A stretch of 64,000 nt of DNA, from positions 518,625 through 582,624 of the forward strand of contig CAWBJP010000003.1 of NCBI GenBank assembly GCA_963789165.1, read 5' to 3'. The stretch comes from an uncultured Actinomycetes bacterium (lineage in GTDB: Bacteria; Actinomycetota; Acidimicrobiia; IMCC26256; BP-133). The notes beneath the pieces were generated by a model. That model did not search any database and was not told where the DNA came from. It saw only the letters and a list, made by a program, of their open reading frames with translations. The translations under genes were made by a program, and so were the position numbers. Shown here piece after piece: positions 10,943-37,631 of the stretch. Positions within the stretch are counted from its first letter, which is position 1; every line of letters starts with the position of its first letter.

Positions 10943-10958
10943 TCCGGTCCTCCTCCCG

Positions 10959-12329
10959 TCACCCCCGCGGCTTGTTGCGCCGCTCGAACGCCTTCATCAG
11001 CCCAGCGACGTCCATGATGCCGTAGCCATAGTCGTAGTCGTACCCGCCGCCGTTGCGATCGTCGGCGGTCCGCTGCAGCAACGTCCGCACCTGCCCGGGG
11101 CTGAGGGTCCGGGGCGGGAACAGGGTACGGATGGCGGCCACCACCCCGGCGGCCACGGGACAGGCCGCCGACGTTCCCGAGTCCGGCTTCCCGGGAAACG
11201 CCTCCGACCCGGTGAAGTGGGTGTAGGTGCACACGTCCGGCTTGCGCTGGTCCAGCCGCCCGGGACCCTGCGACGAGTAGCCCACCCGCTCGCCGGTGAC
11301 GTCGACGCCGCCAACGGAGAGCACCCCCGGATGCGAGTTGGCGCCGCCGATGGGACGGTCGGGGTACTCACAGCGCCCGTCGGGGCAGTCCCGCCCGCAG
11401 TTCCCGGCGGCGAAGACAATGTCGGCCCCCGCCGCCTCGAGGCTCGAGACGATGACGTTGAACGGGTGGGCCCGGCTGTCCGAGTAGTTCCCCGGGGCGC
11501 CCGGCGGGAAATCCCACCCCGGCGAGAAGGACCCCCAGCTGTTGGTCACCACCAGGGCCCGGCCCTCCTCGGGCATGGCGTCGAGGACGGCCCGGAGGTG
11601 GGCATAGGCCGCCACGGCGTCAGAGAGGAGCCCCTCCATAGCGTTCGCCCCCTGGCGCCCGGAGAGCAGCACGGCCATGTCGAGCACGGTCGCCTCGGGG
11701 GCGGCGATCAAAGCGTCGAAGCCACACATCGTCCCGTGGTCGACCTTGTGGGCCCCCGGCGTCGTTCCGACTCCGCTCGGGGTCCAGCTGCGGGCGGCGT
11801 CGAAAGCGAAACTCCGGCCAAGGTGGGCTTCGACGTGGGCCACGTTGACCCCCGAGTCGACTACCGCTAGGGCCACCCCCGCGCCGGTGAAACCAGCCCC
11901 GTGCAGCTCCGAGAGGTGGAGCTCGCCGGCCACGTCGTGCCAGTCCCCCACCGCCGGGCTGTCGCCGCAGGTGGGACACGACCCGATGGTGGGGTCGGCG
12001 AAGATCCCGACGATGTCAGGCCGGGAGCCGCTGAGCAGGGCCAGGCGACTAGCGAGGTTGTCGTCGGCGATCTCGCCCCGCACCAGAACGCCCGCTTCCT
12101 GTGGCTCGAAGGAGAAGGTCAGCTCCTGTTCCAAGGACAGCGGATCGCCACGCGGGTCCACGGGCCGGGGCCGGGGGACGGGCACCGGGGGATAGCCCGG
12201 GTCGATCCGGAACCCCGGCAGGTCCCCGGCGACGGCCTCCGGGCCGGGCGGCGCCACCGCTCCCCTCGTCGCCCGCACGGCGGCCTCGACGACGTCGGGT
12301 GCCGGTCGCATCTGAATGAGGACTCGCAT
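10959..12329 (-). CDS. S8-family (subtilisin-like) serine peptidase without a recognisable signal peptide
   Basis: Catalytic triad contexts: LAVVDSGVN (Asp), DHGTMCG (His), SGTSAACPVAAGVVAAI (Ser). ATG 12329 follows gaggggg. The N-terminus is not hydrophobic. Confidence 0.9.
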   Translation of the reverse strand: MRVLIQMRPAPDVVEAAVRATRGAVAPPGPEAVAGDLPGFRIDPGYPPVPVPRPRPVDPRGDPLSLEQELTFSFEPQEAGVLVRGEIADDNLASRLALLSGSRPDIVGIFADPTIGSCPTCGDSPAVGDWHDVAGELHLSELHGAGFTGAGVALAVVDSGVNVAHVEAHLGRSFAFDAARSWTPSGVGTTPGAHKVDHGTMCGFDALIAAPEATVLDMAVLLSGRQGANAMEGLLSDAVAAYAHLRAVLDAMPEEGRALVVTNSWGSFSPGWDFPPGAPGNYSDSRAHPFNVIVSSLEAAGADIVFAAGNCGRDCPDGRCEYPDRPIGGANSHPGVLSVGGVDVTGERVGYSSQGPGRLDQRKPDVCTYTHFTGSEAFPGKPDSGTSAACPVAAGVVAAIRTLFPPRTLSPGQVRTLLQRTADDRNGGGYDYDYGYGIMDVAGLMKAFERRNKPRG

Positions 12330-12589
12330 CTGGACCCCCTCGTGGCTGGCTCGGGACGAATCCCGCCCCCGGTGTTCCACCTGGAGGAGCGGCGCACTGC
12401 GCCGACCTCGCGGCCTCTAAATCCATACTACTTTTTCGAAGTTCTAGGAAGTATCGTGCTTGTGACGTACGGAACGCCGGCTTCGACACACTCGATACGG
12501 CTTGCCCGTCAATGAAGTACCGCCTTGCAGGGGCGAGGGTGACCCGGGAGCATTGCGACAGCGTGGATCGCTGACCCTTGGAGCGTGTC

Positions 12590-13627
12590 ATGGGCGGCAT
12601 CTTCATCAACTACAGGCGTAACGACTCCGAGTACATCGCGGGCCGGCTCCGAAACGACCTCTCCCGGCGGTTCGGCACCGATTTCCTGATTTTCCGCGAC
12701 GTCGACTCCTTGGCGCTCGGACGCTTCGCGGAGGAGATCGACCAGGCGGTCCGGTCCTGCGACGTGATGGTCGTGGTGATCGGTGACGGTTGGCTCGATG
12801 CCCGCGATGCCTCGGGCAAAAAGCGCCTGGACCAGCCCGACGACTGGGTCCGGCAGGAGATCGCCGCCGGCCTTAGACAGAAGAAGATTCTGGTCCCGGT
12901 ACTGGTCGAGAACGCCCGCCTGCCTTCGGCCCACGAGCTACCGCTGGAGATAGCGGAGCTGGTCGACCAGCAGGCCGTGGAGCTTCCCGACTCCCGGTGG
13001 GATTACGAGGTGGAACAACTGGTCGGAAAGCTGGAGCGGTCGCTCCGGTCGAGAAACCTCTTGCCCTCGGATCAACAGCAGGAATTGCCGGCTCCACCCC
13101 TGCGGGATTCCACCAGGAGGTCTGGGCCCAAATGGGCCTTGGCAATCATCCCCGTCGTTCTTGCCGCCGGTGTGTTCGCCATAGTCCGCTCGAGCGGCTC
13201 CGGCTCGGAGTGCACACGCGACCGAACTCCGGCGCCAGGGCGGACGACTGTTGCCTCCCGTCAGACGGACCGGTCATATACCGGCCCATGGTCGGTGACC
13301 TGCGGTCCCCTCACGCTCACCATCGAGAAGATCGAAACCTCCGCCAGCGCCACCCGGGTTCATGCCCGGGTGGACAACGAGACGGACGACACCCTGATCC
13401 TTTCCGCCAGTCAGTTCAACATGGTCGATGACAACGGACACAGCTATCGAGCGAATCCGTTCTCGAGCGAATGGCCCAAAGACATTCCCCCCGGTGTGCT
13501 CCGCGGGATCGTCGATGTCGTGGAGCCGCTCCGGCCGGAGGCGACAAGTATCAGCGCGGGGTGGGGCACCGTGTTCGGGACCTTCGCGGTCGACCAGATC
13601 TTCGTCGAGGGCATCGGGCTGCGGTAG
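12590..13627 (+). CDS. Membrane-anchored TIR-domain protein with a C-terminal DUF4352-like beta-sandwich
   Basis: N-terminus MGGIFINYRRNDSEYIAGRL...VMVVVIGDGWL...DDWVRQEIAAGL (TIR_2-type motifs including the conserved Glu). TM helix WALAIIPVVLAAGVFAIV. C-terminal LTIEKIETSASATRVHARVDNETDDTLILSASQFNMVDDNGHSY. Confidence 0.85.
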   Translation: MGGIFINYRRNDSEYIAGRLRNDLSRRFGTDFLIFRDVDSLALGRFAEEIDQAVRSCDVMVVVIGDGWLDARDASGKKRLDQPDDWVRQEIAAGLRQKKILVPVLVENARLPSAHELPLEIAELVDQQAVELPDSRWDYEVEQLVGKLERSLRSRNLLPSDQQQELPAPPLRDSTRRSGPKWALAIIPVVLAAGVFAIVRSSGSGSECTRDRTPAPGRTTVASRQTDRSYTGPWSVTCGPLTLTIEKIETSASATRVHARVDNETDDTLILSASQFNMVDDNGHSYRANPFSSEWPKDIPPGVLRGIVDVVEPLRPEATSISAGWGTVFGTFAVDQIFVEGIGLR

Positions 13628-13636
13628 GCGACCGGA

Positions 13637-14173
13637 GTGATCATCGTGCATGCGGGCAATCGAATCGATCCGCCGGGAAGAGTCCCGCCCCGCTTTCCCG
13701 CCCATCGGGAACGGGCGGTCGGGGCCAGGATGGTGGAGCTACTCCAGATTCTCGAGCCCGCAGGCATTGTCAGCGCGGCGGCCGCCGGTGCCGACCTCCT
13801 GTTGGCCGAAGCGGCTCTGGATCGGGCGGTACCCCTCCACGTCGTCCTCCCCTGCCCTCGAGCCCGCTTCCAGGAGGTGTCGGTCGCGGATCAAGGCCCG
13901 CGTTGGGTTCTCGCCTTCGAGCGGGTCCTGAACCATGTCGCCCAAGACACCCGGTCCTCGTTGGAGGAGTTGACGCTCGAGCCGGACGACGCCGGCTTCC
14001 GCATGGCCAACCAGGTGCTGCTGGATCGGGCGGTCAACCTCGGCGCCGACCGGGTACTGGCCGTGGCCGTCCGCCCGAGACAGAGGGAGTCCACGCCGAG
14101 CGTGACCGATGACTTCGTCGACCGCGCCGAGGCGGCCGGATTCTTCGTACTGGAGATCGATCCCGGGCACTGA
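13637..14173 (+). CDS. SLOG/LOG-like Rossmannoid domain protein (tentative)
   Basis: HAGNRIDPPGRVPPRFP...IVSAAAAGADLLLAEAALDRAVPLHVVLPCPRARFQEVSV resembles the N-terminal module of DUF4071/TRAFs-binding-type proteins. The gene starts 10 nt after the TIR stop and ends 40 nt before the CHAT gene. The start could be GTG 13637 or GTG 13646. Confidence 0.5.
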   Translation: MIIVHAGNRIDPPGRVPPRFPAHRERAVGARMVELLQILEPAGIVSAAAAGADLLLAEAALDRAVPLHVVLPCPRARFQEVSVADQGPRWVLAFERVLNHVAQDTRSSLEELTLEPDDAGFRMANQVLLDRAVNLGADRVLAVAVRPRQRESTPSVTDDFVDRAEAAGFFVLEIDPGH

Positions 14174-14213
14174 GCGCAAACGTCCAGCAGGTCAGCCGGA
14201 AGGGGGACCCAAG

Positions 14214-17200
14214 ATGGCGGAGTCCGAGAGCGGGCCCGGCGTCCAAGGCATCTCACTGGCAGGCGAAGGCGTCCGATTCGCCGCGGATCGTGGAGTCGCC
14301 GCCGACACCCGGTCGGACGGCGTCACCGTTGATCCCGTGGCCGCCACCATCAACGCCACCGATGGCTTGCGTATCGCTGAGGCCATCACCATTCGAAACC
14401 TCGAGGTGACCGGGGGCGGCGGTCGAGGTGACGCGCGTGAGGGTGCGCTGGTTGTGGATGTCGGGCGGGCAGAGCCGGGTGAACGACCCGTTGTTCTCGT
14501 CGAAGAGGACGGCCGCTACACCTGGGTCGTTCCCGCCCCAGGCCAGGAACGTCTCCGGTTGCCGGTGGAAGCCGCTCCTGGAAGCCGGGGGCTGGCCGGC
14601 TGGGCTGTTCGCCGCGTGCTTCGCGTGGTGGCCGTGAAGACCGTGGGCTGGGCGGTGCACGAGGCGACGCGGACGATCGTCGGCGGCTGGGACGAACGGC
14701 GCCACCCGCACCGCCTCCGCGCCTGGACGCCCGAGAACCACCGCGACCCCAATGCCCCACCTCCCGACATGCAAGCTCTGGGGGCCGGACCAGCTCTGCT
14801 TGTCATCCACGGGTTCATGGGGTCCGTCCACGGGTCCTTCGGCGACCTGGCGGCTGACGTAGTGCGCGGGTTCCACCGGGCGTATCGCGGCCGCACATTC
14901 GCCTTCGACCACCCGACCCTGGCGGTCTCCCCAAGGAAGAACGCCAAGTGGCTCGCCCAGCAGCTCAGCAGCGAGGGCGTTCCCCTGGTCCTCGATGTCG
15001 TCGCCCACTCGCGGGGCGGGCTCGTCGCCCGCGAGCTGGCTCAGCGACTGAGCGGAGATGGCGTCACGGTGCAGTCGATCACGTTCGTAGCCACCCCGAA
15101 TGACGGCACCCCTCTGGCCGACCCGAAGCGACCCGAGGGGCTTCTCGACGCTCTCACCAACCTGGCTGGCGCAGTGCCGGGCAGCGATGCCCTCCAACTC
15201 GTCTTGGAACTCTTGAAAGACATCGTGGTGGGGTCAGCCTTCACCGGCCTCAAGGGGCTGGTGGCCATGGAGCCGGGCGGGGCCTACCTCAGCGAGCTCA
15301 ATGCTCTACCCGTCCCGGAGGGCTTGGAGCTCCGGGCCATCGCGGCTGACTTCGAACCCCGCAGCGACGCCGGGATCGTCCGGACCGCACACGACCGTTT
15401 GATCGACGCCTACTTCGGTGGGCTTCGCAATGACCTCATCGTTCCCACGCTGAGCACGATCGTGACGAGCGGCGCCTTCGGTGTCCGTGCCGGCCACCGC
15501 CTCGTCCTCGACAGCAGCCGCGGGGTGGACCACAGCTCGTTCTGGACCAACCCCAGGGCCGTAGGCCAGCTCGCCGATTGGCTGCGCCCGGACTGGCGTG
15601 AGCGTCCCCCGGACGAGGTACCTGACGAGGAGACGGACCCCGGAGCCGAGATGGCGCTGCCCCCCGATCCCCGGAGGATCGAAGACGTGGCGGATGCCGT
15701 CAGCCGCCTCCCCGACAGGTCCCGCAAGGCGGTGGAGGAACTTGTCGGAGGCCCGATCAATGAACGGGCCCGCAGACCCACAGGCGACCGTCCAGCCGTG
15801 GTCGTCATCCCGGGAATCATGGGGACGCATCTGCGCCGCCGAGCCGGTGAGCTCATCTGGATCGATCCGTTGCGCCTGATGCGCGGCCACTTCAGTGACT
15901 TGTCCTTGGCACCGCCAGGGGCCGAGGTGGAGCCTGCGGGATTGAACCGCACGTATCTCCCCCTCATCACCCATCTCGCCGAAACGCGGGATGTCTACCT
16001 GGCTCCGTTCGACTGGCGCCTCGACATCCGGGACTCGGCGAACAAGCTGGCGAACCTGATCCAGGACCAGGTTCTCGTAGCCAACCCCACCCGGTCGGTG
16101 CATCTCGTAGCCCATTCGATGGGTGGCCTGGTGGGCCGGTCACTCACCTTCGTAGCTCCGGGCGTGTGGTCCGAAATGGGTGCTGAGCAGCGCGGAGACA
16201 GTGGTCGGCTGGTGATGCTGGGGACACCGAACCGAGGATCGTTTTCCATCGTGCTGACCCTCACGGGCGCAGAGATGATCTTGAAAGCCCTCGCCGCAGT
16301 CGACTTCCGTGCCGACACCAGACGGCTGCTCGAGGTCGTGGCCACCTTCCCGGGCGTGTATCAGATGCTTCCCTCCCTCAGCGTCGGGCCGGGCGACGAC
16401 CGGCACCGCGACCTGTTTACCGCCACCAACTGGGGCAGTCGGTCACCGGTTCAGCAGGCCCTTCTTTCCGATGCGGTCGAGTTCCACGCCGCCCTGGAAG
16501 AAGCGCACCGGAACCTGAGCGATACGGACCTCGCCCGCATGACGTCCGTCGCCGGGTACGGCGTCGCCACCCCTTATCGGCTGGAGATCACCGAACCCGG
16601 GTCGTTCAGCGTCGGTCGGGTGCTGAGGGGCGACGGCCGCGTGGCGATGGCTCTCAATCACCTCGACGGCGTGACCCGCTACTACTGCAAGGCATCCCAT
16701 GGTGCGCTGCCGTCGGCACCGGATGTCCTGGCCTCGCTCGGGGAACTGCTGGCCGGGAACCCTGGCCAGTTGGAGCGTGAGGCGCCCGAATCCCGAGGCG
16801 CCGAGGCCATGGACCGGCCGCCGATGATCCCCGTCGAACTCTTCGACTCGGTACCCACCGGCGGGACACGCTCCGGCGTCGCCGTCGTAGGCCGGCGCCA
16901 GGCGGAGGCGCGCCTGGTCGAGGCTCTCAGACCCTCGTTGGGCGGAGGCCTCGCCCCTCCCGAACGGGTGCAGGTCAAGGTCCGCGTGGTCCATGCCAGC
17001 CTCGAACAGGCCGATTTCCCGGTCGCTGTCGGTCATTACACGGGGGTCCCGGTCGACGGGTCGGAAGGGTTTCTCGACCGCAAGCTGTTGGGTGCCCTGC
17101 GCCAACGGCAGTACCTCGGGCAATATCCCGAACGGGCAGGGACGGCCGTGTACATCCCGGCCCCGCCTGGCCACCAGCCCCGGGGGGCGCTGATATTGGG

Positions 17201-19709
17201 CCTCGGGGAGTTCGGCACGTTGACGGGCGCCAACCTCTCCGAGGCAATGACCCAGGCTGTCATCGCCCTGGTCCTCGACCAGCGTGAGCGCGACCCGGAT
17301 CCGAGCGCTTCTGTGAGCATCGGCGTCTCATCGGTGCTCGTCGGGACACCCGGGCGTCACGGTCTGACCATCGAGAACGCCGTCACTTCACTGGTTGAGG
17401 GCGTGATCGAAGCCGTGGTCCGCCTTCGACGCCAGGACGAGCCCATTCCCCTGCGAACGGTCGAGCTCGAATTGATCGAGAGCTATCAGCAACCCGCGGA
17501 AGAGGCGGCGATGCTGCTGGCCGACCTGGACAGGCTGCTGGAGCCCGGCCTGCGGGACCAGGTCGACCTGCTGACCGTCGACCGCTTGGTCGCACGCGAG
17601 GGCCACCAGCCCGGCGCGCCGCCGGGACGTGAGTCGGGCGAGGCCTGGATCCGTGTGCTGGTAGGGCTCGAACGCGATGAGCAGGCGGCGGGGACTTCCT
17701 CGATCCGTCGTATGACCTTCTCGACGCTCGCCCGCGGGGCCCAGGCCAACCTGATTTCACACGACGTCGACCTGGAGAAGATTCGGGCCTACGTCGACGC
17801 CGCCGTCCGACGCCCAGAACAGGATCCGGCCATCAACCGGACGCTGTTCGAACTGCTCTTTCCGCCCCGGGCCAAGCTGGACCTCGACCGGTCGGAGCAC
17901 CTCCACCTCATCGTGGACGACGAGACGGCCCAGCTGCCGTGGGAGCTCCTGGCGGCGGCAGCCGTCGGTCGCGATGTTGCGCCTCTCGCCCTGCGGGCGG
18001 GCATGCTGCGGCAACTTCAGAGCCCGTCGCTCACGCGCTACCGAACAGGCTCTCCCCGGGGCCTGACGGCTCTGTTCGTCGGAGATCCGCCCACCAGCTA
18101 CCCCCGCCTGCCCAACGCCAGAGAAGAGGCTGAACGCTTGGCGACACTGTTTGAAGGGCGACGCTGGGAGGTGGAACGCCGCATCTACGGGGACGACCAC
18201 ACCGGCGACGCCGACGAGTGGATGGACGTCCTGAACGCCCTCCACCAGCGGGACTACCGCGTGGTGCACATCGCGGCCCACGGCGTGTTCGATGAGGACT
18301 GGCGGCGCAGCGGCGTCGCCATCGGGCCCCTCCCCGAGCACCGCCTGACCGCCCTCGAGTTCGAGGCCATGAGCTCCACCCCTGACCTCGTCTTCCTGAA
18401 TTGCTGCCATCTCGGCCGCCTGGGTTGGTTGCTCGATCAGGCCAAGGAGCCCGACGCCCGGGCCCTCGAGCGGCCACACCGGGTCGCCGGCACGGTCGCC
18501 CAGCAACTCCTCCGCAACGGGGTCGGGGCGGTGGTGGTAGCGGGTTGGGCCGTCGACGACTTCGCCGCCGCCGCCTTTGCCTCTGAGCTCTACGAATCGA
18601 TGCTCGGCGGCTATCCCTTCGGCGAGGCGGTGCGCAAGGCCCGCATCGCCGCTCACAAAGCCGACGATGGCCGTTCAAACACGTGGGGGGCGTACCAGTG
18701 TTACGGCGACCCGGACTTCGAGATGTTGGCCCGGGACGTCCCGCCCACGACGCGGCCCGCACCCGTGAGCGCGGCGCAGCTGGCCCGAGACCTGCGACTG
18801 GCCGCCATCCGGGCCAGTGAAGCGACAACGGTCGAGCACACCAGGCAGGTGGCGAGAGAGGTCAACGGGCTGCGGGTGGCCGGGGGGGACCTGGTCAACG
18901 ACGGCCGGGTGCTGGAAGAGCTGGGTGACGCCTTCAGCGAGCTCGGTCACTATGAGCAGGCCGTGGAGGCCTATGAGCAGGCCCTGCGCGAGGAGAAGGG
19001 CGAGGTCCGGATCAGGACGGCCGAACAGCTCGCGAACCTGAAGGCCCGCCTCGCGGTCAACCTGGCCCGAAAGCCGGACGGGTCCGCGGATGCCCGCCGG
19101 CTTTTTGCCGAGGCCAGCTCGATGCTCGACCTTCTCGACCGTCTCGCCGGGAACACGGCCGAACGCCACGCCTTGCGAGGCAGCCTGGAGAAGAAGCGGG
19201 CCACCACCGTGGAAGGCGAGCAACGCGCCAAAGCCCTCATCACGGCCCGCGCCGCGTACCTGACGGCCCGTCAGCTCAGCTCGCCTGACCGCCACGCGTG
19301 GCTGGTCCCGTACCACACCAACCTCTGGCTGCAGCTCGTCATCCTGACCAGCGAATCCGCTGCCCTCGCGGAAGAAGAATCAGGCTGGCTGGATGCGCTC
19401 CACCACCAGGTCGCCGAGCAAGCGAGCACTCCGTCCAACTATTGGGAGCTGGCGGCACTGGCCGACACGCTGCTGACCTATCTCCTGGCCGACCGGCCCA
19501 CCACTCGAGGTTCGGTGTCCGCCGAAGAGGTGAAGACGAGCTATCTGAAGGCCTTCGAGCTTCGTTCCACCGTGCGCCAACGCGATTCTGCCCTCACCCA
19601 CCTTCACGATCTCAGCCTGCTCGTGCCGTTCGAGAGAGCGCAGCCGTACGTCACCCTGTTGGAAAGCCTGAGAAGGGTCTTCCCCGATGAGGAAGGTGCC
19701 GGGCGATGA
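14214..19709 (+). CDS. 1831-aa multi-effector protein: two alpha/beta-hydrolase (lipase/PGAP1/LCAT-like) modules + CHAT caspase-like protease + C-terminal helical-repeat (TPR/DUF4071-like) region
   Basis: ATG 14214 follows ggaaggggga. Hydrolase 1: LLVIHGFMGS...LDVVAHSRGGLVAREL. Hydrolase 2: VVVIPGIMGTHL...VHLVAHSMGGLVGRSL. CHAT dyad: YRVVHIAAHGVF ... DLVFLNCCHLG. C-terminus contains LGDAFSELGHYEQAVEAYEQALRE and further helices. Confidence 0.9.
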   Translation: MAESESGPGVQGISLAGEGVRFAADRGVAADTRSDGVTVDPVAATINATDGLRIAEAITIRNLEVTGGGGRGDAREGALVVDVGRAEPGERPVVLVEEDGRYTWVVPAPGQERLRLPVEAAPGSRGLAGWAVRRVLRVVAVKTVGWAVHEATRTIVGGWDERRHPHRLRAWTPENHRDPNAPPPDMQALGAGPALLVIHGFMGSVHGSFGDLAADVVRGFHRAYRGRTFAFDHPTLAVSPRKNAKWLAQQLSSEGVPLVLDVVAHSRGGLVARELAQRLSGDGVTVQSITFVATPNDGTPLADPKRPEGLLDALTNLAGAVPGSDALQLVLELLKDIVVGSAFTGLKGLVAMEPGGAYLSELNALPVPEGLELRAIAADFEPRSDAGIVRTAHDRLIDAYFGGLRNDLIVPTLSTIVTSGAFGVRAGHRLVLDSSRGVDHSSFWTNPRAVGQLADWLRPDWRERPPDEVPDEETDPGAEMALPPDPRRIEDVADAVSRLPDRSRKAVEELVGGPINERARRPTGDRPAVVVIPGIMGTHLRRRAGELIWIDPLRLMRGHFSDLSLAPPGAEVEPAGLNRTYLPLITHLAETRDVYLAPFDWRLDIRDSANKLANLIQDQVLVANPTRSVHLVAHSMGGLVGRSLTFVAPGVWSEMGAEQRGDSGRLVMLGTPNRGSFSIVLTLTGAEMILKALAAVDFRADTRRLLEVVATFPGVYQMLPSLSVGPGDDRHRDLFTATNWGSRSPVQQALLSDAVEFHAALEEAHRNLSDTDLARMTSVAGYGVATPYRLEITEPGSFSVGRVLRGDGRVAMALNHLDGVTRYYCKASHGALPSAPDVLASLGELLAGNPGQLEREAPESRGAEAMDRPPMIPVELFDSVPTGGTRSGVAVVGRRQAEARLVEALRPSLGGGLAPPERVQVKVRVVHASLEQADFPVAVGHYTGVPVDGSEGFLDRKLLGALRQRQYLGQYPERAGTAVYIPAPPGHQPRGALILGLGEFGTLTGANLSEAMTQAVIALVLDQRERDPDPSASVSIGVSSVLVGTPGRHGLTIENAVTSLVEGVIEAVVRLRRQDEPIPLRTVELELIESYQQPAEEAAMLLADLDRLLEPGLRDQVDLLTVDRLVAREGHQPGAPPGRESGEAWIRVLVGLERDEQAAGTSSIRRMTFSTLARGAQANLISHDVDLEKIRAYVDAAVRRPEQDPAINRTLFELLFPPRAKLDLDRSEHLHLIVDDETAQLPWELLAAAAVGRDVAPLALRAGMLRQLQSPSLTRYRTGSPRGLTALFVGDPPTSYPRLPNAREEAERLATLFEGRRWEVERRIYGDDHTGDADEWMDVLNALHQRDYRVVHIAAHGVFDEDWRRSGVAIGPLPEHRLTALEFEAMSSTPDLVFLNCCHLGRLGWLLDQAKEPDARALERPHRVAGTVAQQLLRNGVGAVVVAGWAVDDFAAAAFASELYESMLGGYPFGEAVRKARIAAHKADDGRSNTWGAYQCYGDPDFEMLARDVPPTTRPAPVSAAQLARDLRLAAIRASEATTVEHTRQVAREVNGLRVAGGDLVNDGRVLEELGDAFSELGHYEQAVEAYEQALREEKGEVRIRTAEQLANLKARLAVNLARKPDGSADARRLFAEASSMLDLLDRLAGNTAERHALRGSLEKKRATTVEGEQRAKALITARAAYLTARQLSSPDRHAWLVPYHTNLWLQLVILTSESAALAEEESGWLDALHHQVAEQASTPSNYWELAALADTLLTYLLADRPTTRGSVSAEEVKTSYLKAFELRSTVRQRDSALTHLHDLSLLVPFERAQPYVTLLESLRRVFPDEEGAGR

Positions 19710-20764
19710 CCATGCAGCTCTTCCTGAGCCACTCGACTCGTGACCGAACCATCGCCGAGGCGGTCAAGGTACTGGTTGAGGACCTGTTCGGGACGGACCG
19801 GGTTCAGGTGGAATTCTCTTCCGATCAGCAAGCTGGCGGCGGCATCCCGCCCGGCGCGCAGTGGCTCCCATGGATCACTGAGCGCATCACGCGAGCCGAC
19901 AAGACCTACGTGCTCATCACGCCGAACTCGACGAAGAAGCCCTGGGTCCTGTGGGAGTCGGGGGCGGCCGCCGGTGTCGCTCTGGCAACCCACAGATCGA
20001 GCCCCGTCGTCCCCATCACGTTCGGCATCGCAGACGCCGACATCCCGAGCCCTCTCCTGGCCAATCAGCGGGTGCGGGGTGACACCGATGAGGCCGACGG
20101 CATCACCCGGTTGCTCCAGGACCTCAACCTTGCCGTTGGTGCCCCACTGACCACCAAGGCCTTCGCTTCAACCATCGACGAGTGCCTCCCCGATTTCTTT
20201 GCCAAGATCAAGATGGCCCTCGGTCAATCCTCACCCGCAGAAAGCCTGCTCGCCTCGGTACCCCACAGCTTCTCCGCCGAAGCGCTGGGCGGCTTCTGGG
20301 TCACCTGCTACCAGTTCGCTTCGAGCCAGGGCCTGGGGTGCCATGCCGACATCGCGCAGCTCACCCCGGAATCGGATCGACGGGTGAGAGCCAGGAACTG
20401 CCCGCCTGAGCCCCGAACCGACGGTCACCGCACGCCGTTCCGGAACGAGATCGAGGCCGAGTTGGCCAACCGGCACCTCATCGGTTATTGGAAGAACGTC
20501 AGCGACACCCGGTACTTCGGGACAGTTCACCTCGCCGTCCTCCCTGGCGAGACCGTGATGGACGGCTACTACACCAGCTTCACAAGCGACGTCGAGGCCG
20601 GCACCGGGCACTGGAGGTGGGTCCTCCTCGACCCCGAGTCGCTTCCGGGTGTCGATCTCACCCGCATGGCGTTGCGGGAGCCAGCCGTGATCCACGAACT
20701 GCTTCTGGCGCACTCCAAGCACGCCGGGCCGATCAAGTTGGCCGATGTGGCGGAGGCCATCTAG
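19706..20764 (+). CDS. TIR-like domain protein with an uncharacterised ~180-aa C-terminal domain
   Basis: The ATG overlaps the CHAT stop (ATGA at 19706-19709). MQLFLSHSTRDRTIAEAVKVLVEDL...YVLITPNSTKKPWVLWESGAAAG (TIR-like beta-A motif and W..E glutamate). I do not recognise the C-terminal half. Confidence 0.7.
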   Translation: MTMQLFLSHSTRDRTIAEAVKVLVEDLFGTDRVQVEFSSDQQAGGGIPPGAQWLPWITERITRADKTYVLITPNSTKKPWVLWESGAAAGVALATHRSSPVVPITFGIADADIPSPLLANQRVRGDTDEADGITRLLQDLNLAVGAPLTTKAFASTIDECLPDFFAKIKMALGQSSPAESLLASVPHSFSAEALGGFWVTCYQFASSQGLGCHADIAQLTPESDRRVRARNCPPEPRTDGHRTPFRNEIEAELANRHLIGYWKNVSDTRYFGTVHLAVLPGETVMDGYYTSFTSDVEAGTGHWRWVLLDPESLPGVDLTRMALREPAVIHELLLAHSKHAGPIKLADVAEAI

Positions 20765-21154
20765 GTGGGAATCACCAGGCAGGAGGCCGGCGACGTCGTC
20801 AACCTCTACATCCAGGCGTGGGTCGGGCAGGATCCCGATCTGATCGTGACCATCTTCACCCCTTCGGCCACCTATCACGAGCGCGTGCTCGACACTCCGA
20901 TCCGAGAACGCGAAGGGATCCGGGCGTACTGGCAGGCGAAGGTCGTCGAGTCGCAACGCAACATCGAATGCGACCTGCTGAACCTGTATCTCGACGGGGC
21001 TACCGCCATTGTCGAATGGGAGGCCCGTTTCGACGACCTGGTTGCGAAGGAGCGGAAACGGATGCGAGAGGTGGCGATCCTCGTCTTCGAGGGCCAACTG
21101 ATCGCCAGCCTCCGCGAATACTGGTCCTCGGAGCGGATCGCCGACCTGTCCTAA
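20765..21154 (+). CDS. NTF2-like / SnoaL-like fold protein
   Basis: GTG start immediately after the TAG of the preceding gene. VVNLYIQAWVGQDPDLIVTIFTPSATYHE...IRAYWQ...YLDGATAIVEWEARF...VAILVFEGQLIASLREYW is typical of the SnoaL/NTF2 pattern. Confidence 0.7.
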   Translation: MGITRQEAGDVVNLYIQAWVGQDPDLIVTIFTPSATYHERVLDTPIREREGIRAYWQAKVVESQRNIECDLLNLYLDGATAIVEWEARFDDLVAKERKRMREVAILVFEGQLIASLREYWSSERIADLS

Positions 21155-21306
21155 CTCGTATACGCGAGCGGAACGACTTTCAAGTTTCCGTAGACATTAT
21201 GGCATTCTTCGCTAAAGTTAGGCGTAGTTGACGCTCTACCTCGAGCGGGCGCCGAGGGACGAAGGTGCGACGTGCATCCCCTCGTTCGAAAGCGAAGGGA
21301 GCAGCG

Positions 21307-22170
21307 ATGTCGCGCGGATGGTCAATCCATATCGGCCTCAACTCCGTCGATCCTGACAGTTACGAGGGTTGGGCGGGCCCGCTCTCGGCCTGCGAGTTCG
21401 ACGCTGGCGACATGGCCGTCCTTGCTGAAAGCCAGGGCTTTGAAACCAGGACGATCCTCACTCGCGAAGCCACCGCAATCAACGTCATCGGAGCACTCCA
21501 ACAGGCCGCGGCCGTACTTCAGGATGGCGACATTCTCTTCCTCTCCTACTCCGGGCATGGTGGCCAGGTCGACGACGCGAACGGCGACGAGAAGGACCTG
21601 CGGGATGAGACCTGGGTCCTCTATGACCGACAGCTTCTCGATGACGAGCTCTACGACCTGTGGAGCAGATTCCGTCCTGGTGTTCGGATCGTCGTCGTCT
21701 CCGACTCCTGCCACAGCGGGACGGTAGTGAGGGGGATTCCCGATTACCTCCAGGCCTCGGTCCTTCAGGCCCGCTACGGGGGGATGACGGTGGAGGATGT
21801 TGACCGAGGCACCAAGGCCATGCCCGAGAAGATCAGCAGGAGCGTCAACAACGCCCACCGCGACCTATACGACGGCATCCAGAGAGCCCTCAAGACGAGG
21901 GATGGGGCCGCAATAGGGGCCGGCGTGCTCCTCATCTCCGGATGCATGGACAACCAACTCTCAGCGGATGGGGAGCGCAACGGAAGGTTCACCGAAGAGC
22001 TTCTCCGGGTGTGGAACACCGGCAAGTTCGAAGGGTCGTACCGCTCCTTGCACAAGACAATCCTCATGGGCATGCCGCCAGACCAGTCCCCGAACCTTCT
22101 TCCCGTCGGTACTGCCAACCCGGAGTTCGAACAGCAACGACCCTTCAGTATCGAGCTCTTCCCACGGTGA
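21307..22170 (+). CDS. Caspase-family (peptidase C14, metacaspase-like) cysteine protease
   Basis: ATG 21307 follows gaaggga. His context ILFLSYSGHGGQV and Cys context IVVVSDSCHSGT. Confidence 0.9.
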   Translation: MSRGWSIHIGLNSVDPDSYEGWAGPLSACEFDAGDMAVLAESQGFETRTILTREATAINVIGALQQAAAVLQDGDILFLSYSGHGGQVDDANGDEKDLRDETWVLYDRQLLDDELYDLWSRFRPGVRIVVVSDSCHSGTVVRGIPDYLQASVLQARYGGMTVEDVDRGTKAMPEKISRSVNNAHRDLYDGIQRALKTRDGAAIGAGVLLISGCMDNQLSADGERNGRFTEELLRVWNTGKFEGSYRSLHKTILMGMPPDQSPNLLPVGTANPEFEQQRPFSIELFPR

Positions 22171-22709
22171 GCACCCCGACCATTCCAGAGGACGTCGAGC
22201 CGACCGAACGGATCGAGGTGTTCTTGTCCTACGCGCATGAGGACCAGGAGTTTCGCGGCCAGCTTGCCGCGCACCTCAGTCAATTAGAACAGAACGGCGA
22301 TATCAAAGCCTGGTCAGACCGTGAAATTGCGCCCGGTGCCAATTGGGATCGAGAAATTGACGTTCACGTGCTGACGGCGCACGTGATTCTTCCTCTGCTC
22401 AGCCGACACTTTATGGCGTCGCGTTATTGTTTCTCGGAAGAACTACGTATCGCAAAGAAGCGACACGAAGCCGAAGAAACTCGTCTAATTCCCATATTGA
22501 TTCGTCCAGTTGCCCTCGTCGGAGTGCTGATGCAGCTTCAGATGCTGCCCTCCTGTCCTGACGGAAGCGAACTACTCCCCGTGAGTGCATGGCCCGACGT
22601 CGACAACGCATGGACGCAGGTCACCGACCGAATAATCGAGGCGGTGGCCAGCGTGCGCAAGCAGCGGCAACAGAAATCTCCAAAGGTCTGGGGCAGCGGT
22701 TCGGGATAG
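22167..22709 (+). CDS. TIR-domain protein
   Basis: GTG 22167 overlaps the caspase stop (GTGA). IEVFLSYAHEDQEFRGQLAAHL...WSDREIAPGANWDREI...ILPLLSRHFMASRYCFSEELRIA (TIR_2 motifs including the conserved Glu). Confidence 0.85.
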   Translation: MSTPTIPEDVEPTERIEVFLSYAHEDQEFRGQLAAHLSQLEQNGDIKAWSDREIAPGANWDREIDVHVLTAHVILPLLSRHFMASRYCFSEELRIAKKRHEAEETRLIPILIRPVALVGVLMQLQMLPSCPDGSELLPVSAWPDVDNAWTQVTDRIIEAVASVRKQRQQKSPKVWGSGSG

Positions 22710-22716
22710 AGAGAGG

Positions 22717-23334
22717 TTGTTCGGCCGACAGGACCTTTTGGACGATCTTTGGTATCGCTACAAAGACCTGACTCAATCCAATATCCAAGTACTGGTCGGC
22801 TCTTCAGGGCTCGGTAAAAGCACCGTCGCTGCGCAGTACGCCTGGACACATCGTCCTGACTACGAAGTCGTGTGGTGGATCAACGCAAGCGACCCGACTC
22901 AACTCGAAGCCTCCTACGTTGCCCTCGCGGAAGCCCTGGGATCCGCGACACTGAGGGGCGATGCCGCCAAGGAGGTAGTGAAGGAACGACTCAAGGAAAC
23001 CGGAGCGCTTCTGATCTTCGACAACGCGCGGGACCCACGACACATTGAGTCGTTCCTCCCACACCAGCCTCGTAGCCATGTGCTCGTCACATCGCAGGGC
23101 GGTAATTGGCCGGAGCTTGGATACGTCACATCTTTTCAGGCCCTTACTCAGGCCGAGGTCGAGCACGTCCTGCGTGAGGCTGCAGATATGGACGACCAGG
23201 ATCTAGTCCCCGAGCTCGCCCGCCACCTTCAAGGCGACCCGTTGGCGGTAAAGACCGCTGTCGCCCGGCTGCGGTCCGGGGAGAGCGCATGGTCCTACCT
23301 TCGCAAGCTTCAGCAATGGGCAAAAGGGCAGTGA
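22717..23334 (+). CDS. NB-ARC-type STAND P-loop NTPase module (no sensor or winged-helix part in this frame)
   Basis: TTG 22717 follows gagagagg, 7 nt after the TIR stop. FGRQDLLDDL...VLVGSSGLGKSTVAAQYA (Walker A), ALLIFDNARD (Walker B), HVLVTSQ, GDPLAVKTAVARL. Confidence 0.85.
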   Translation: MFGRQDLLDDLWYRYKDLTQSNIQVLVGSSGLGKSTVAAQYAWTHRPDYEVVWWINASDPTQLEASYVALAEALGSATLRGDAAKEVVKERLKETGALLIFDNARDPRHIESFLPHQPRSHVLVTSQGGNWPELGYVTSFQALTQAEVEHVLREAADMDDQDLVPELARHLQGDPLAVKTAVARLRSGESAWSYLRKLQQWAKGQ

Positions 23335-26300
23335 CTTCTAGCGCCGGCGGCGTGACCGGTGGTTCGGTAACAACGGCAGCCGAGCTCGCTCTCGACGAGA
23401 TGAGCACCGATTCTGCCGAAGTCATGGAGTTGCTAAGCCTTCTCGCCTTCTTCGCCCCGGACAGCGACATCCCCGGGCTCGTCCTCCTTGACGGTGCCAC
23501 CGCGCTCGAAGCAGATGCATGCAAACCAATTTCCTCTCCGCTCGCTCTCAACGACGCGATGTCCACTCTCGTCGCATGGGGGCTGGCAGAAGTTGACGGT
23601 GTCAGCCTGGTCATCCATGAGCGGATCCAGATCGCCGTGCGGGCGCGCCTCGGCTCCGATCAACAGCGCCGAACCGCGGAAGCCGCGGGTCTCGTCATAG
23701 CGTCGACCTATCCAGACCATCCCGATGCCATTCGGAACTGGCCCAAGGCCGGGTTGCTGCTCTCGCATGCTCTCGGGCTCATCGATCACCTTGAACGGCT
23801 TCGAAGTAAATCGGAAGTCCTTCCCCGGTTGCTCGACCGAGTCGGCCTCCATTTTATGGGCCTCGGACGACTGCAGGATGCCCTCCGGCTTCTCGAGCAG
23901 GCACAAGCAACTGTGTTCCTGGTCCACGGCGCTGGAAGCGACCTCGATGCTTGCGTCCAGCGCCACCTGGGCACGGTCCTTCGGGAGGCGGGCCGGCTCA
24001 GAGAATCAGAGTTGTTACTCCAAAGAGCGCTGGCGAAGGACACAGATCGAGACGGGGCTGATTCTCCGTCCGTAGCATTGGACCTCCGAGAGCTGGGCCA
24101 GACACTGGCCCGCCACAAGGGCTATCTCGAAGCACGAAAGCATCTGGCCAAAGCGCTTCAGATCCACGAGACTTTCGAGCCCGACGGGTTCGAGGTCGCC
24201 GCCGATCTTGATGCGCTATTTGAGGTGTTCGCCCTCCGAGGCGACATCGCCGAAGCGCGCAGCGTTCTCGAACGGGCTTTGTCCATCCGCGAGAAGCTCT
24301 TCGGTCATGACGACGTCGACACAATCATGACTCGCGTTGCCTTGGAGGTATTTCGTGGACTCTTGGTCGAGGGTTGGTCGAACACCTCTGCCATCGAACG
24401 GTACGTAGCGCAATCGGAACAGACGTTCGGCCTATCTCACCCTCGAGTCGCGGAGGTCTACGAACTGGTGTCGGATGCGGCTGCGAACCGGCAGGATTGG
24501 GAAGCTGCGCAGACGTATCTCGAACGGTCTCTAGAGGTCAACAAGTCCGCATACGGTCGTACGCATCCGCGCATCATCAGCAACCTATTCCGGCTCTTCA
24601 GAACAGCCTTGGCTCTGGGGCAAATTCAACGGGCCGGGGCGTTAACTGAGGAAGCGATCGGCATCCTGAAAGAGGTGCGGCCAGAGGATCTTGAAGCGAC
24701 GATCGCCCAAGCTGACGTCGCCACCGCTCTTTCGCCGTTGTCAGAGCTGGACCCTTCGGCCCGTCCGGCAGCCCGTACCGGCCTGGAACGATCGCTTGAG
24801 ATGCTTCGGCATGAACTGCCCGCCGCGCGCACGACAGAGATCGATCTCCTAGAGGTGCTGGCCCAGCTGGCGGTCGACCAGGGTGAACGCAATCTGGAAA
24901 AGGATCTCTTGAGCGAGGCTCTGGAAATCGTCCGCTCGACAGATATGTCAGAGCTGGAGGAGGCTCGCCTGCTGAGCAAGATGGCCGCGGGCGAGGAATC
25001 GCCTGCCAAGGCACTCCTCTTATGGACACGGGTTCTCGAGGTGGAGCGTCGCGAGCTCGGCCCCGATCACTATCGCCTCTTTACCACGTACTCATCCTTG
25101 TGGCCTCTGCTCCTAACGCTGAACCGGGTGCACGAGGCCCGAAGCGCCCTCGAGGAGGGCATCCGGATCGCTGGAAAAACATTCGGGCCCGACCATTGGC
25201 TGCTCGAGCAGATGCACGAGGCGCAGTCAGTCCTCAGCGCCTACGGCGGCGACATGGCCTCTGCGGTGGACGCGAGGCGCAAGGCCTTGGCTGCGGCAGA
25301 GAGCAATCCCAATTCTGATCAGGCGACCCTGGTGGTGCGGTTGATGCAGCTGGCCGAGACGCTCCAAGTCATCGGTGGATGGGAAGAGGCGCTAGAGCTC
25401 CTCCATCGGGGCCTGGAGATCCAAAAGGATGCGAAGCTCGACGAAGGACTTCGAGGGACCCTGCATCTCCGGCTAGCCGATTCGCTCATCCACGAAGGCG
25501 ACTACTCAGCAGCCCTGGCCAGCCTCAAAGAAGCTGCTCGGGTCGTAGAGATTGGGGAGGCCCGCCAAGACGCGGTGGAAGAAGCTGGCGCCTTGAGTCC
25601 CGGTCGCGAACAGATCGTCGAGGGATGGTCCAATCTCGGGGACGCCCTGCTCGCCAGTGGCCAGCCCTCGCTGGCGATCGAGCGTTACCAACTCGGGTTG
25701 CAAGCGGCGGCCCTGACTGAGACGCCTCTCGATGATGCGCAACTTCATGTCCGGCTTGCAGTCTTGGCCGGTATTCATCAGCAGGACGACTCGGCGAAGA
25801 ATCATCTGGAAAGAGCGCTTAAATTCATTCAAGCGGCTCAAATGCCCGGACCTCTGTGGGGCCTTTTGATCTCTTGCTCACGGGTCATGGCTCTCACGGA
25901 GCCACCCCAGGCAATTTTGCGACTCATACGAGAACTGGTCAGGTCTAGCTCGGGAGCGATGATGGACTTTCGTGGCAAACTCACGGGGGGCGTGCCTGAT
26001 GGATGGTTTGCGAAGGAGTCCCTCACTTTCGTTGCACCAGACGGCCAGGCGAACGTGATCGCTTCGAGTGAGCCACTCGACGAAACGATCAGGTCTGAGG
26101 AGTATGCGCAAATTCAAGGCGATCTTCTGCAAAGCGAATTTCCGGAGTATGCCGAACTCTCTTTTGAACCCGCTCACGTCTTTGGCCGAGCCGGATTCGT
26201 CCGCTATTTCCGTTGGACTCCTCCAGATGGCGTCTCAGTAACCCAGATCCAGTTCTACCACGCCGATACTGGACGAGGCTTTACTGCCACAGCGACTACA

Positions 26301-34000: not shown

Positions 34001-34020
34001 GGTGGAGACGGCAAGTCTGT

Positions 34021-37622: not shown

Positions 37623-37631
37623 ACTCTTTCG

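Follow-up and report, generated by a model that had tools for sequence, protein, structure and literature searches.

Characterized Thoeris TIR proteins are, to our knowledge, all treated as cytoplasmic infection sensors, and the locus analyzed here raises the question of what a bacterial TIR protein might do when it is tethered to the membrane and carries a further domain predicted to lie outside the cell. The protein, P0001 (345 amino acids), combines a TIR domain, a transmembrane (TM) helix and a β-sandwich. Its gene lies at 12590..13627 of the window, the whole stretch of 64,000 nucleotides that was analyzed; all coordinates refer to the forward strand unless otherwise stated. The original prediction regarded P0001 as a potential outside-in sensor, an idea that is plausible for the predicted outer domain. 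A Thoeris-like alarm pathway is probably initiated by P0001, which may sense what happens at the cell surface. Should this be confirmed, TIR immunity in bacteria could start at the surface of the cell, and the manner in which ThsB-type TIRs recognize infection would become testable.

The open reading frame and its translation begin with an ATG at 12590, the stop codon lies at 13625-13627 and an SD-like GGAG is located at 12580-12583, 6 nt 5' of the start. An MGGIF/MSGIF start is common to P0001 and its homologs, of which 72 were found at E ≤ 0.001. Neither a promoter nor a terminator was found in a scan of 12200-14400, and no full-length relative was among the matches listed in the metagenome scan.

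The N-terminal TIR domain (residues 4-156, 12599..13057) was assigned from Pfam and from sequence and fold matches to SARM1. Pfam TIR_2 (PF13676) covers residues 4-144 (E 9.5e-12, with 45.9 bits passing the cut-off of 28) and the last TIR helix reaches residue 156 in the structure model, in agreement with the approximately 150 residues originally estimated. When the domain was compared with the PDB using phmmer, only SARM1/TIR-1 chains were returned (best E 2.5e-8), and the SARM1 TIR was also on top in Foldseek (TM 0.77-0.84 on target). SARM1 is an NAD+ hydrolase/cyclase, that is, an NAD+-consuming TIR. The motifs SYRR and DWV..EI are common to both proteins, and the putative catalytic glutamate of P0001, E90 (codon 12857..12859, in DWVRQEI), is aligned in register with the Glu of SARM1 DWVHKEI, which corresponds to residue 642 by the offset of the 724-amino-acid chain; we take E642 to be the catalytic residue of SARM1. 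E90 is invariant in the homolog alignments (A1, A2 and A3). Judged from these alignments, the P0001 TIR is SARM1-like, with predicted catalytic competence and the putative catalytic Glu retained. However, the identity to the SARM1 TIR is only ∼25%, and P0001 is a membrane-anchored bacterial protein without ARM or SAM domains.

Behind the TIR domain, a disordered cytoplasmic linker containing Pro and Arg (residues 157-180, 13058..13129) was recognized by its low pLDDT, which falls below 50 across residues 163-223; its length and sequence differ among the homologs. This linker had been described as basic. A linker is indeed present, but it is merely mildly basic, with three Lys+Arg against three Asp+Glu in residues 157-180. 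A hydrophobicity scan located a single TM helix at residues 181-199 (13130..13186), which is the sole hydrophobic segment of P0001 (Kyte-Doolittle mean 2.26) and includes WALAIIPVVLAAGVFAIV, the stretch from which one TM helix had been predicted. Counterparts of the helix were found in 12 TM-bearing homologs, and the scan revealed no such segment in any other protein of the cluster. An outer linker (residues 200-227, 13187..13270), identified from its Ser/Gly/Thr-rich composition and low pLDDT, contains Cys208.

The N-terminus of P0001 is the first TIR strand and, as anticipated, a signal peptide is absent. Within 15 residues on either side of the helix, Lys+Arg are equal in number (three before and three after); across the single-TM members of the family (n = 77), the N-side flank is higher in 57, lower in seven and equal in 13. 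By these sequence counts, the positive-inside rule holds at the family level. Furthermore, a TM segment precedes the sandwich in 117 of 127 representatives and follows it in none. Its N-terminal partners in the 129 proteins scanned are TIR_2 (11), NERD (10), Pkinase (two), CHAT (two), FHA (one), EAD1 (one) and SHOCT (one), which as cytoplasmic domains count in favor of an N-in/C-out arrangement. The fold neighbors of the sandwich are secreted proteins or lipoproteins. The proposed N-in/C-out topology is upheld by the missing signal peptide, the single helix, the position of the sandwich behind TM segments and the family charge bias, and the assignment of P0001 as a type-II single-pass membrane protein, with its SARM1-like TIR predicted in the cytoplasm and a DUF4352-clan sandwich predicted outside, is well supported.

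The predicted extracytoplasmic β-sandwich (residues 228-345, 13271..13624) was assigned to a DUF4352/DUF5643/MPT63-like fold from an AF2 model and fold matches, and the domain is carried by 141 representatives. Modeling, as the original prediction had suggested, yielded a confident eight-strand sandwich (pLDDT 95.2, pTM 0.85). The C-terminal domain had been put at about 140 residues; this was too long, the folded part being 118 residues that follow the Ser/Gly/Thr-rich linker of about 27 residues. The closest solved folds are YjhA 3cfu, 4les, 4eae, YcdA 4r4g and MPT63 1lmi. Foldseek gave 4les, 3cfu, 4eae and 1lmi at E 6e-5 to 2e-4, and the VIA-align Z scores were 9.9 for 4r4g, 8.9 for 4eae, 8.6 for 3cfu, 8.4 for 1lmi and 8.1 for 4les. 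These structures presumably belong to DUF4352/MPT63-type Pfam families, and the similarity of the model to such solved members indicates a DUF4352/MPT63-like fold; among the named Atlas clusters, DUF4352/DUF5067 come closest (scores 0.87-0.90). In Pfam, DUF4352 (PF11611) did not match P0001 at E ≤ 0.01 and stayed below its cut-off of 25.9 in two relatives (P0112, 22.3 bits; P0131, 20.2 bits), and DUF5643 (PF18705) reached 19.9 bits on P0001, short of its cut-off of 34. Among 129 relatives, DUF5643 was sub-threshold in 22 and passed the cut-off in P0173 only (42.5 bits). The earlier term 'DUF4352-like' is appropriate for the fold and the clan but not for Pfam membership. A search of PDB sequences with the sandwich profile returned nothing significant (4les at E 0.82), and the sandwich HMM, applied to 79 TIR proteins of genome loci, matched three TM-less Acidimicrobiales proteins only. 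Nitrospira ectodomains are DUF4352-like in alignment A6 only.

The P0001 gene heads ten co-directional ORFs; between 12590 and 22170, neighboring genes are separated by short intervals or overlap slightly. Its proposed place as the first gene of the operon is retained. The gene for p178 (178 amino acids, 13637..14173) starts 9 nt after the TIR gene. It belongs to an unnamed family recognized from its homologs (n = 77), none of which carries a Pfam domain, and p178 itself has no family in Pfam, PADLOC or NCBIfam. The protein is probably SLOG-like according to sub-threshold leads, namely weak matches of the family to YAcAr SLOG (seven of 38 members) and DprA (three of 38) and an Atlas lead to YpsA SLOG (0.87-0.88); the family profile gave nothing below E 1 against PDB sequences. 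A giant protein (14109..19709), the true start of which may be the ATG at 14214, comprises two α/β-hydrolase domains (DUF7379, LCAT/PGAP1-like), a CHAT protease, TPR and TPR-S in Pfam. The TPR-S (TPR-sensor) domain, which was reportedly introduced by Burroughs et al. in NAR in 2015, covers ORF residues 1615-1728 (18951..19292; PF20308, 31.9 bits, cut-off 27.6). Its apparent link to ThsI-like proteins runs solely through this Pfam model; pairwise BLASTP of the giant's C-terminus with the TPR-S proteins of the related loci L003 and L013 was not significant (E 0.04 and 0.14).

The gene of a soluble second TIR (352 amino acids, 19706..20764; Pfam TIR_2 E 1.1e-9) overlaps the giant's stop by 4 nt and is followed by those of a SnoaL-like protein (129 amino acids, 20765..21154; Pfam SnoaL_2 E 1.5e-12) and a caspase-like peptidase C14 (301 amino acids, 21265..22170; Pfam Peptidase_C14 E 1.2e-21), in which C14 spans residues 32-271 and leaves almost no extra C-terminal domain. 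A third TIR with subsequent NB-ARC and TPR regions (22200..26396; Pfam, with a PADLOC ThsB model E of 8e-36 for the TIR) is distributed over three frames (21942-22709, 22717-23334 and 23289-26396), which would reflect a frameshift in a TIR-NB-ARC-TPR gene or else errors in the assembly. No SLATT domain was found by Pfam in the 12 window proteins scanned.

Homologous clusters with a membrane TIR, which the original prediction had proposed to look for, do exist: the partner types recur beside related membrane TIRs in other phyla, the association being limited to a minority of the related loci. Of the 70 loci that span 12 kb or more, eight have the CHAT giant, caspase or p178 adjoining related TIRs. 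TPR-S proteins were seen in 21 of 159 related loci (16 among these 70), a p178-like domain, mostly fused behind TPR-S, in 15 of 159 and SLATT proteins in six of 159; SLATT was seen in L003, L013 and L017. Homologs of the giant (∼1500 amino acids at 28-29% identity) lie beside related TIR-TM genes in L052, L071 and L011, and the window caspase is 55% identical to that of L052, which is encoded 64 nt upstream of the L052 TIR-TM gene. Related TIRs of Nitrospirota and Betaproteobacteria adjoin the same partners, as well as SLATT and TPR-S proteins, and the p178-like domain is found there tail-to-tail with TIR-TM genes. No NCBIfam model matched the p178 and TPR-S proteins, and no CMP-hydrolase annotation was obtained.

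Among the complete proteins of the TIR family, 87 of 146 have one TM helix, with a tail of at least 80 amino acids behind it in 85 of these 87. The tails of sister TIRs contain PASTA domains in six loci, and also NHL, PDZ and Ig-like domains. A large TIR subfamily is thus described here in which a single helix and diverse tails, DUF4352-like ones among them, follow the TIR, beside effector types known to read TIR signals; no description of a TIR-TM-outer-domain architecture was found in the literature searched for bacterial membrane-anchored TIRs and for TIR with PASTA. In one clade (support 100/100), nine close relatives have lost the linker and helix, and the sandwich is fused straight to the TIR. 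Since the sandwich was kept when the helix was lost, the domain can apparently work in the cytoplasm and an outside location is not essential; by its sequences, this clade would fit a scaffold or oligomerization role equally well as a sensor role. Three TM-less loci were examined: L002 and L004 have no CHAT, caspase, p178, TPR-S or SLATT within reach, and L003 has SLATT and TPR-S without CHAT, in the order TIR, SLATT_3, SLATT_1, TPR-S. A hidden signal or TM segment upstream of the TM-less genes was considered and rejected, the upstream frames being Arg/Pro/Ser-rich with no hydrophobic stretch.

Several known systems invite comparison. According to the available part of a recent survey (10.64898/2025.12.03.692087), Thoeris VII (with the SLATT effector ThsH) and Thoeris VIII (with the CMP-hydrolase-TPR effector ThsI) signal through canonical cADPR and can be encoded together in one operon, cADPR is a product of SARM1 as well, and the TIR of configurations that lack verification may be the toxic effector. 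As far as that part describes these two types, the window cluster resembles them in that the TIR is the upstream gene, that SLATT and TPR-S proteins like their effectors stand beside relatives of P0001, sometimes both in one operon, that the giant contains a TPR-S domain and that the P0001 TIR resembles SARM1, a cADPR maker. However, the P0001 TIR is tethered to the membrane and linked to an outer domain, whereas the available part of the survey mentions TM helices for effectors only (10.64898/2025.12.03.692087). In addition, the window TPR-S is joined to hydrolase and CHAT domains where type VIII has a CMP hydrolase, the cluster lacks the SLATT gene of type VII and p178 is a separate gene. 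Type IV Thoeris, in the accessible portion of its description (10.1101/2024.10.24.620036), consists of a short TIR and a caspase-like protease, with N7-cADPR, and its detection rule requires the protease to be no more than one gene away from the TIR. In the window cluster, too, TIR genes occur together with a caspase-like C14 peptidase, and in L052 the caspase gene precedes the TIR-TM gene by 64 nt. However, the window caspase is five genes from P0001, beyond this spacing, and only the second and third TIRs lie within it, by position. The contrast originally drawn between P0001 and soluble ThsB-type TIRs is fair, but the neighbors of P0001 point toward Thoeris-type signaling and not away from it.

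The whole is best explained, with chances that we judge to be evenly balanced, if P0001 is a membrane-bound ThsB-like signal generator that feeds a TPR-S-coupled protease. The observations behind this explanation are the domains, the conserved Glu at the putative catalytic position, the evidence on topology from the family as a whole and the gene neighborhood that recurs among relatives. TIR domains of P0001 would be gathered in the membrane and would then cleave or cyclize NAD+, the likeliest product being canonical cADPR by analogy with SARM1 and Thoeris VII/VIII. The neighboring SLOG-like p178 and the giant's terminal TPR-S would read this product, and the CHAT protease, probably together with the caspase-like protease, would be switched on, resulting in cell death or dormancy. 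We infer the enzyme product and its readers by analogy, and also the role of the outer domain, which would provide the trigger input through ligand- or damage-induced clustering.

A further reading, which we offer tentatively and hold to be unlikely, is that of a prokaryotic outside-in TIR receptor. The sandwich would detect a surface event, for instance a docking phage tail or wall damage, and cluster the TIRs, a cADPR-type messenger would be made before phage entry, the SLOG-like protein and TPR-S would read it and the CHAT/caspase cascade would fire; the PASTA, PDZ, NHL and Ig-like tails of the sister TIRs would act likewise. If true, such a receptor would be functionally equivalent to Toll-like receptor signaling, in the opposite orientation. 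PASTA Ser/Thr kinases (PknB/PrkC type) and animal Toll-like receptors are single-pass proteins with an outer binding domain and a cytoplasmic signaling domain. The former are analogs in that kinases as well as TIRs can be followed by the same sandwich and by PASTA domains. Toll-like receptors are analogs only: the order is reversed, with the P0001 TIR N-terminal and inside, and P0001 has no LRRs. Moreover, unlike the TIR adaptor of Toll-like receptors, the P0001 TIR is probably an enzyme. A counterpart of the outer part, as reported in the available part of its description (PMC12596739), is Mpr of Mycobacterium smegmatis, a protein of TM segment, linker and DUF4352 that is implicated in resistance to phage D29, the DUF4352 domain being a structural framework that drives oligomerization in the membrane; escape mutants map to a tail protein, and the domain is reported to hydrolyze nucleotides. 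Mpr and P0001 are both membrane proteins of actinobacteria in which a helix and a flexible linker lead to a DUF4352-type sandwich at the C-terminus, a likeness of layout and fold that PF11611, which misses P0001, does not extend to the family; unlike P0001, Mpr has no TIR and, in that text, a nucleotide-hydrolyzing domain.

The membrane TIR could instead be an executioner, in which case another component of the island, for instance the TIR-NB-ARC-TPR protein or the giant, would detect infection, P0001 would deplete NAD+, and the helix and sandwich would merely anchor it and pre-arrange oligomers. We consider this doubtful. The P0001 TIR resembles that of SARM1, which consumes NAD+, PADLOC includes a 'TIR-TM' protein model, and the TM-less clade retains the sandwich, the role of which therefore need not be outside sensing. 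The oligomerizing framework described for Mpr DUF4352 (PMC12596739) and the toxic-effector caveat among the limitations of the Thoeris survey (10.64898/2025.12.03.692087), each from the part available, are consistent with the same view. However, the PADLOC TIR-TM model (PDLC03016) does not match P0001 at E ≤ 0.01 and instead matches the second TIR of the cluster (E 1.1e-8), which nevertheless has no hydrophobic segment. Furthermore, the family ectodomains are very diverse and include ligand-binding PASTA, PDZ and NHL domains, which is typical of input modules and not of anchors, and the recurrent neighbors are signal-reading effector types.

Housekeeping envelope signaling, in which P0001 would resemble PASTA kinases and report the wall state (growth, division or dormancy) via a nucleotide second messenger, is distinctly improbable in our assessment. 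The same sandwich stands behind Ser/Thr kinases and FHA domains, PASTA domains occur in six related TIRs and the surroundings of L003 and L004 include a gene for a class A PBP or for PG_binding_1 repeats; however, no P0001 match was found at E ≤ 1e-10 in 40 relatives (four of the same genus, seven of the same family and 29 of the same order), the gene resides in a TIR/caspase/CHAT/NB-ARC cluster beside an integrated element, and the partners are cell-killing effector types. It is very improbable that P0001 is functionally independent of the downstream genes and that their adjacency reflects defense-island clustering only. Defense genes do cluster even when they have no joint function, no partner is present at two of the three TM-less loci examined and the partners are absent at most related loci. 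Against this stand the 9 nt gap to p178 with tight spacing onward, the tail-to-tail p178-like domains beside TIR-TM genes in Nitrospirota and Betaproteobacteria, and the closest full-length homologs P0002 and P0003, the contigs of which match those of the p178 homologs P0215 and P0214, respectively, in length (2486 and 3788), suggesting that these are the same contigs.

If the outer domain of the favored signal generator proved to be only a scaffold, the arrangement would still be a new Thoeris-like configuration, although a less surprising one. The locus further suggests an effector form not yet described, in which TPR-S is combined with a hydrolase and a CHAT protease, with a separate SLOG-like protein. 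On the opposite side of P0001, an S8 subtilisin-like peptidase gene (10959..12380, reverse strand; Pfam Peptidase_S8 E 8.4e-24) is oriented divergently, and tblastn detected no counterpart of it in the vicinity of related TIR loci. The cluster adjoins an integrated element.

The gene at window positions 12590-13627 (+) is an intact open reading frame encoding 345 residues (P0001), with GGAG located 6 nt 5' of its ATG and start residues that are those of its homologues. As originally predicted, the protein carries an N-terminal TIR domain (Pfam TIR_2 at residues 4-144, E = 9.5e-12, 45.9 bits against a cut-off of 28), lacks a signal peptide and contains a single membrane helix, the only segment identified by the hydrophobicity scan (residues 181-199); no hydrophobic segment was found in a scan of the other cluster proteins. 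In the AlphaFold2 model (21 homologues, mean pLDDT 80.4) both flanking domains are confident, with pLDDT below 50 over residues 163-223.

A phmmer search against all PDB sequences returned 19 distinct sequences, every one from SARM1 or from TIR-1, the orthologue in nematodes (lowest E 2.5e-8), and the SARM1 TIR domain was also top-ranked by Foldseek (E 4e-9, TM 0.77-0.84 on the target). IFINYRRN and DWVRQEI of P0001 are aligned with VFISYRRN and DWVHKEI of SARM1, and the Glu aligned with the putative catalytic residue E90 is, by the offset of the 724-residue SARM1 chain, residue 642, which we take to be the catalytic residue of SARM1. E90 is unchanged throughout three homologue alignments. With its SARM1-like sequence and fold and this conserved residue, the TIR domain looks enzymatically competent.

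The expected C-terminal beta-sandwich was recovered, with eight strands, when residues 215-345 were modelled alone (68 sequences, pLDDT 95.2, pTM 0.85). Two independent structure comparisons, Foldseek and VIA-align (the latter run against all representatives), placed the same group of entries at the top, namely 4les (Foldseek E 5.8e-5, VIA-align Z 8.1), 3cfu or YjhA (7.7e-5, 8.6), 4eae (7.7e-5, 8.9), 1lmi or MPT63 (2e-4, 8.4), the YcdA lipoprotein 4r4g (1.7e-3, 9.9, r.m.s.d. 2.7 over 107 residues) and 3fbq (1.5e-3, 12.6, but r.m.s.d. 8.2). These fold neighbours are Gram-positive secreted proteins or lipoproteins. An Atlas feature search gave DUF4352/DUF5067 clusters (0.87-0.90) as leads only, a DUF5643 match on residues 242-293 was sub-threshold (19.9 bits against a cut-off of 34), and a sequence-profile search with the outer domain against solved structures reached no match. 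The earlier label 'DUF4352-like' therefore holds for fold and clan, and not for Pfam membership. Among the TM-bearing homologues, conservation is lower in the outer domain than in the TIR domain (mean pairwise identity 0.48 versus 0.62).

A phmmer search with the sandwich alone through 1.84 billion representatives yielded 141 matches at E <= 0.001, including 48 at E <= 1e-10, and the sandwich was located at the C-terminal end of every protein carrying it. Pfam partners were sought in 129 of the 141, omitting nine fragments (<=128 residues) and the three TIR proteins known beforehand; on its N-terminal side the sandwich was joined to TIR_2 (11), NERD (ten), protein kinases (two), CHAT (two) and FHA, EAD1 and SHOCT (one each), the remaining proteins being short and without a named domain. 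When the same fragments and five long repetitive proteins were omitted, a hydrophobic segment preceded the sandwich in 117 of 127 proteins and followed it in none; among the ten proteins that deviate are fragments, one with a lipoprotein-like signal and one TIR protein without a helix. Furthermore, the number of Lys and Arg residues in 77 single-segment members was higher on the N-terminal flank in 57, lower in seven and the same on both flanks in 13 (Wilcoxon p 2e-9), P0001 itself having three on each side. Because of the segment position, this family charge bias, the missing signal peptide and the 180-residue folded N-terminal domain, sequence evidence supports the N-in/C-out topology proposed in the original prediction.

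Pattern scans with a homologue alignment (A3) were used to fetch 79 genome loci and at least 80 metagenome loci encoding related TIRs (159 loci listed). The 146 complete TIR proteins from the loci listed comprise 87 with one segment after the TIR domain, 27 with several and 32 with none at the threshold used; in 85 of the 87 the tail is at least 80 residues long (median 165). Pfam analysis of 67 of these proteins and of two more identified PASTA in six loci (L022, L032, L048, L054, L076 and L071), NHL in L020, PDZ in L045, Ig-like domains in L052 and L071, and TPR in L023 and L070. PASTA is well established as a domain that binds the wall outside the cytoplasm. It is cited as binding the cell wall in part of one paper (PMC7159879). 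The PASTA-TIR proteins, encoded at about position 10001 of each locus, have one membrane helix and then one to three PASTA domains, which is the layout of PknB-type kinases with TIR replacing the kinase. TIR proteins of Nitrospira follow the TIR-helix-tail arrangement, with a DUF4352-like tail that is shorter. In the literature searched, no description of this architecture turned up under phrases on membrane-anchored bacterial TIRs or on TIR together with PASTA.

In a group from Acidimicrobiales MAGs the TIR domain is fused straight to the sandwich, without linker or helix. It comprises eight of the best homologues (P0004, P0005, P0007, P0010, P0011, P0012, P0017 and P0018), the further representative P0110 and loci L002-L004 (L002:10001-10864, L003:9998-10840 and L004:3948-4754), whose products are in part these same proteins. 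A hidden hydrophobic segment upstream of these genes was rejected, as the upstream frames contain none. In a maximum-likelihood tree of 31 chosen rows (nine TM-less, 16 TM-bearing with the sandwich and six Nitrospira proteins), the TM-less proteins form one clade (support 100/100), the sister of which is P0001 with its closest full-length homologues P0002 and P0003 (joint support 100/99), and both groups are nested inside the TM-bearing proteins. A single change is therefore enough, and the pattern reads as one loss of the anchor. The usually extracytoplasmic sandwich was apparently relocated to the cytoplasm in this clade, where it can work beside the TIR domain.

The P0001 gene opens a co-directional run, as stated in the original prediction for the first gene of operon A. 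It is followed after 9 nt by the gene for p178, a 178-residue protein with no match in the PDB and 77 homologues, none with a Pfam domain; weak SLOG-type leads were YAcAr (7/38 members), DprA (3/38) and Atlas YpsA clusters (0.87-0.88). Next is a giant protein of 1866 residues containing DUF7379 and LCAT/PGAP1-type alpha/beta hydrolases, CHAT and TPR-S. Its longest reading frame shares 65 nt with the end of p178, and a start at the in-frame ATG of window 14214 (MAESESGPG...) would abolish this overlap, so the annotated start (14109) is uncertain. A second TIR gene overlaps the stop of the giant and is directly followed by a SnoaL-like gene, with a C14 caspase gene 110 nt further on. TIR, NB-ARC and TPR regions in three reading frames (window 21942-22709, 22717-23334 and 23289-26396) look like one STAND gene, split either by two frameshifts or by assembly errors. 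The G+C content at window 20001-26000 (caspase, third TIR, NB-ARC and TPR) is 0.60-0.63 versus about 0.70 around it, which suggests that the distal part was acquired separately and more recently.

In homologous clusters, these partner types recur near related TIRs in a minority of the loci listed. Matches to the giant, the caspase or p178 (tblastn) were found in nine of the 159 loci listed (L011, L012, L013, L017, L045, L052, L071, L073 and L121) and in eight of the 70 of at least 12 kb. TPR-S proteins (phmmer) were present in 21/159 and 16/70, respectively, and SLATT proteins (phmmer) in 6/159. A p178-like domain, detected by HMM in 15/159 loci listed, is mostly the C-terminal part of TPR-S proteins of about 650 residues encoded tail-to-tail with the TIR-TM gene; fusions of 658-784 residues, with an N-terminal region of no assigned family ahead of TPR-S, occur at L013:11034-13010, L017:11052-13028, L073:11478-13460, L052:12023-14164 and L071:12173-14527. 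This fusion elsewhere hints that p178, a separate gene here, works with the TPR-S domain of the giant. The L003 operon (9998-13231), encoding a TM-less TIR-sandwich protein, SLATT_3, SLATT_1 and MAP3K_TRAF_bd/TPR-S, resembles the rare combined type VII and VIII Thoeris operons described in part of a recent survey (10.64898/2025.12.03.692087).

The most likely reading, to which we give roughly an even chance, is that P0001, anchored in the membrane, would generate a cADPR-type signal in the manner of ThsB; this signal would be read by p178 and by the TPR-S domain, and the CHAT and caspase proteases would thereby be switched on. It is a more tentative and somewhat doubtful proposal that the outer domain may provide the trigger. 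According to sections of the Thoeris survey, SARM1 produces cADPR, and canonical cADPR activates type VII (SLATT effector) and type VIII (CMP hydrolase and TPR effector, the TPR having been predicted earlier to act in TIR signalling), which occasionally share one operon (10.64898/2025.12.03.692087). Those sections mention transmembrane helices for effectors only. In type IV, a caspase-like protease is the partner of a short TIR, as outlined in part of another report (10.1101/2024.10.24.620036). Excerpts of Kaur et al. (2020) state that an alpha/beta hydrolase always accompanies caspase-superfamily domains in conflict systems, and that some of these systems have TM segments and then wall-binding domains (PMC7159879).

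The main rival, which we consider improbable, is that the TIR domain depletes NAD+ as an effector, the helix and sandwich only anchoring and organising it. The Thoeris survey cautions that unverified TIRs may be effectors (10.64898/2025.12.03.692087). In the membrane protein Mpr of M. smegmatis, part of one study attributes oligomerisation to the DUF4352 domain and places phage escape mutations in a tail protein (PMC12596739). The TM-less clade fits a TIR-gathering role of the sandwich as well as ligand sensing. 

A search of 40 relatives (four from the same genus, seven from the same family and 29 from the same order; completeness 61 to 100%) gave no match at E <= 1e-10, and the gene is accessory, as expected of a defence island. 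The cluster end at window 26396 is abutted by a stretch of about 12 kb (window 26422-38524) between two minus-strand tRNA-Val(CAC) calls (26424-26501 and 38452-38524), which have an exact 50-bp direct repeat in common (26422-26471 and 38450-38499). This stretch encodes a tyrosine integrase (36483-37622), an IS110 transposase (34243-35646), an AAA-LuxR regulator and a GMC oxidoreductase (31618-33348), and looks like an element integrated at tRNA-Val. Another GMC oxidoreductase gene (L052:7046-9007) lies directly upstream of a caspase and TIR-TM pair; its occurrence in both places is possibly a coincidence.
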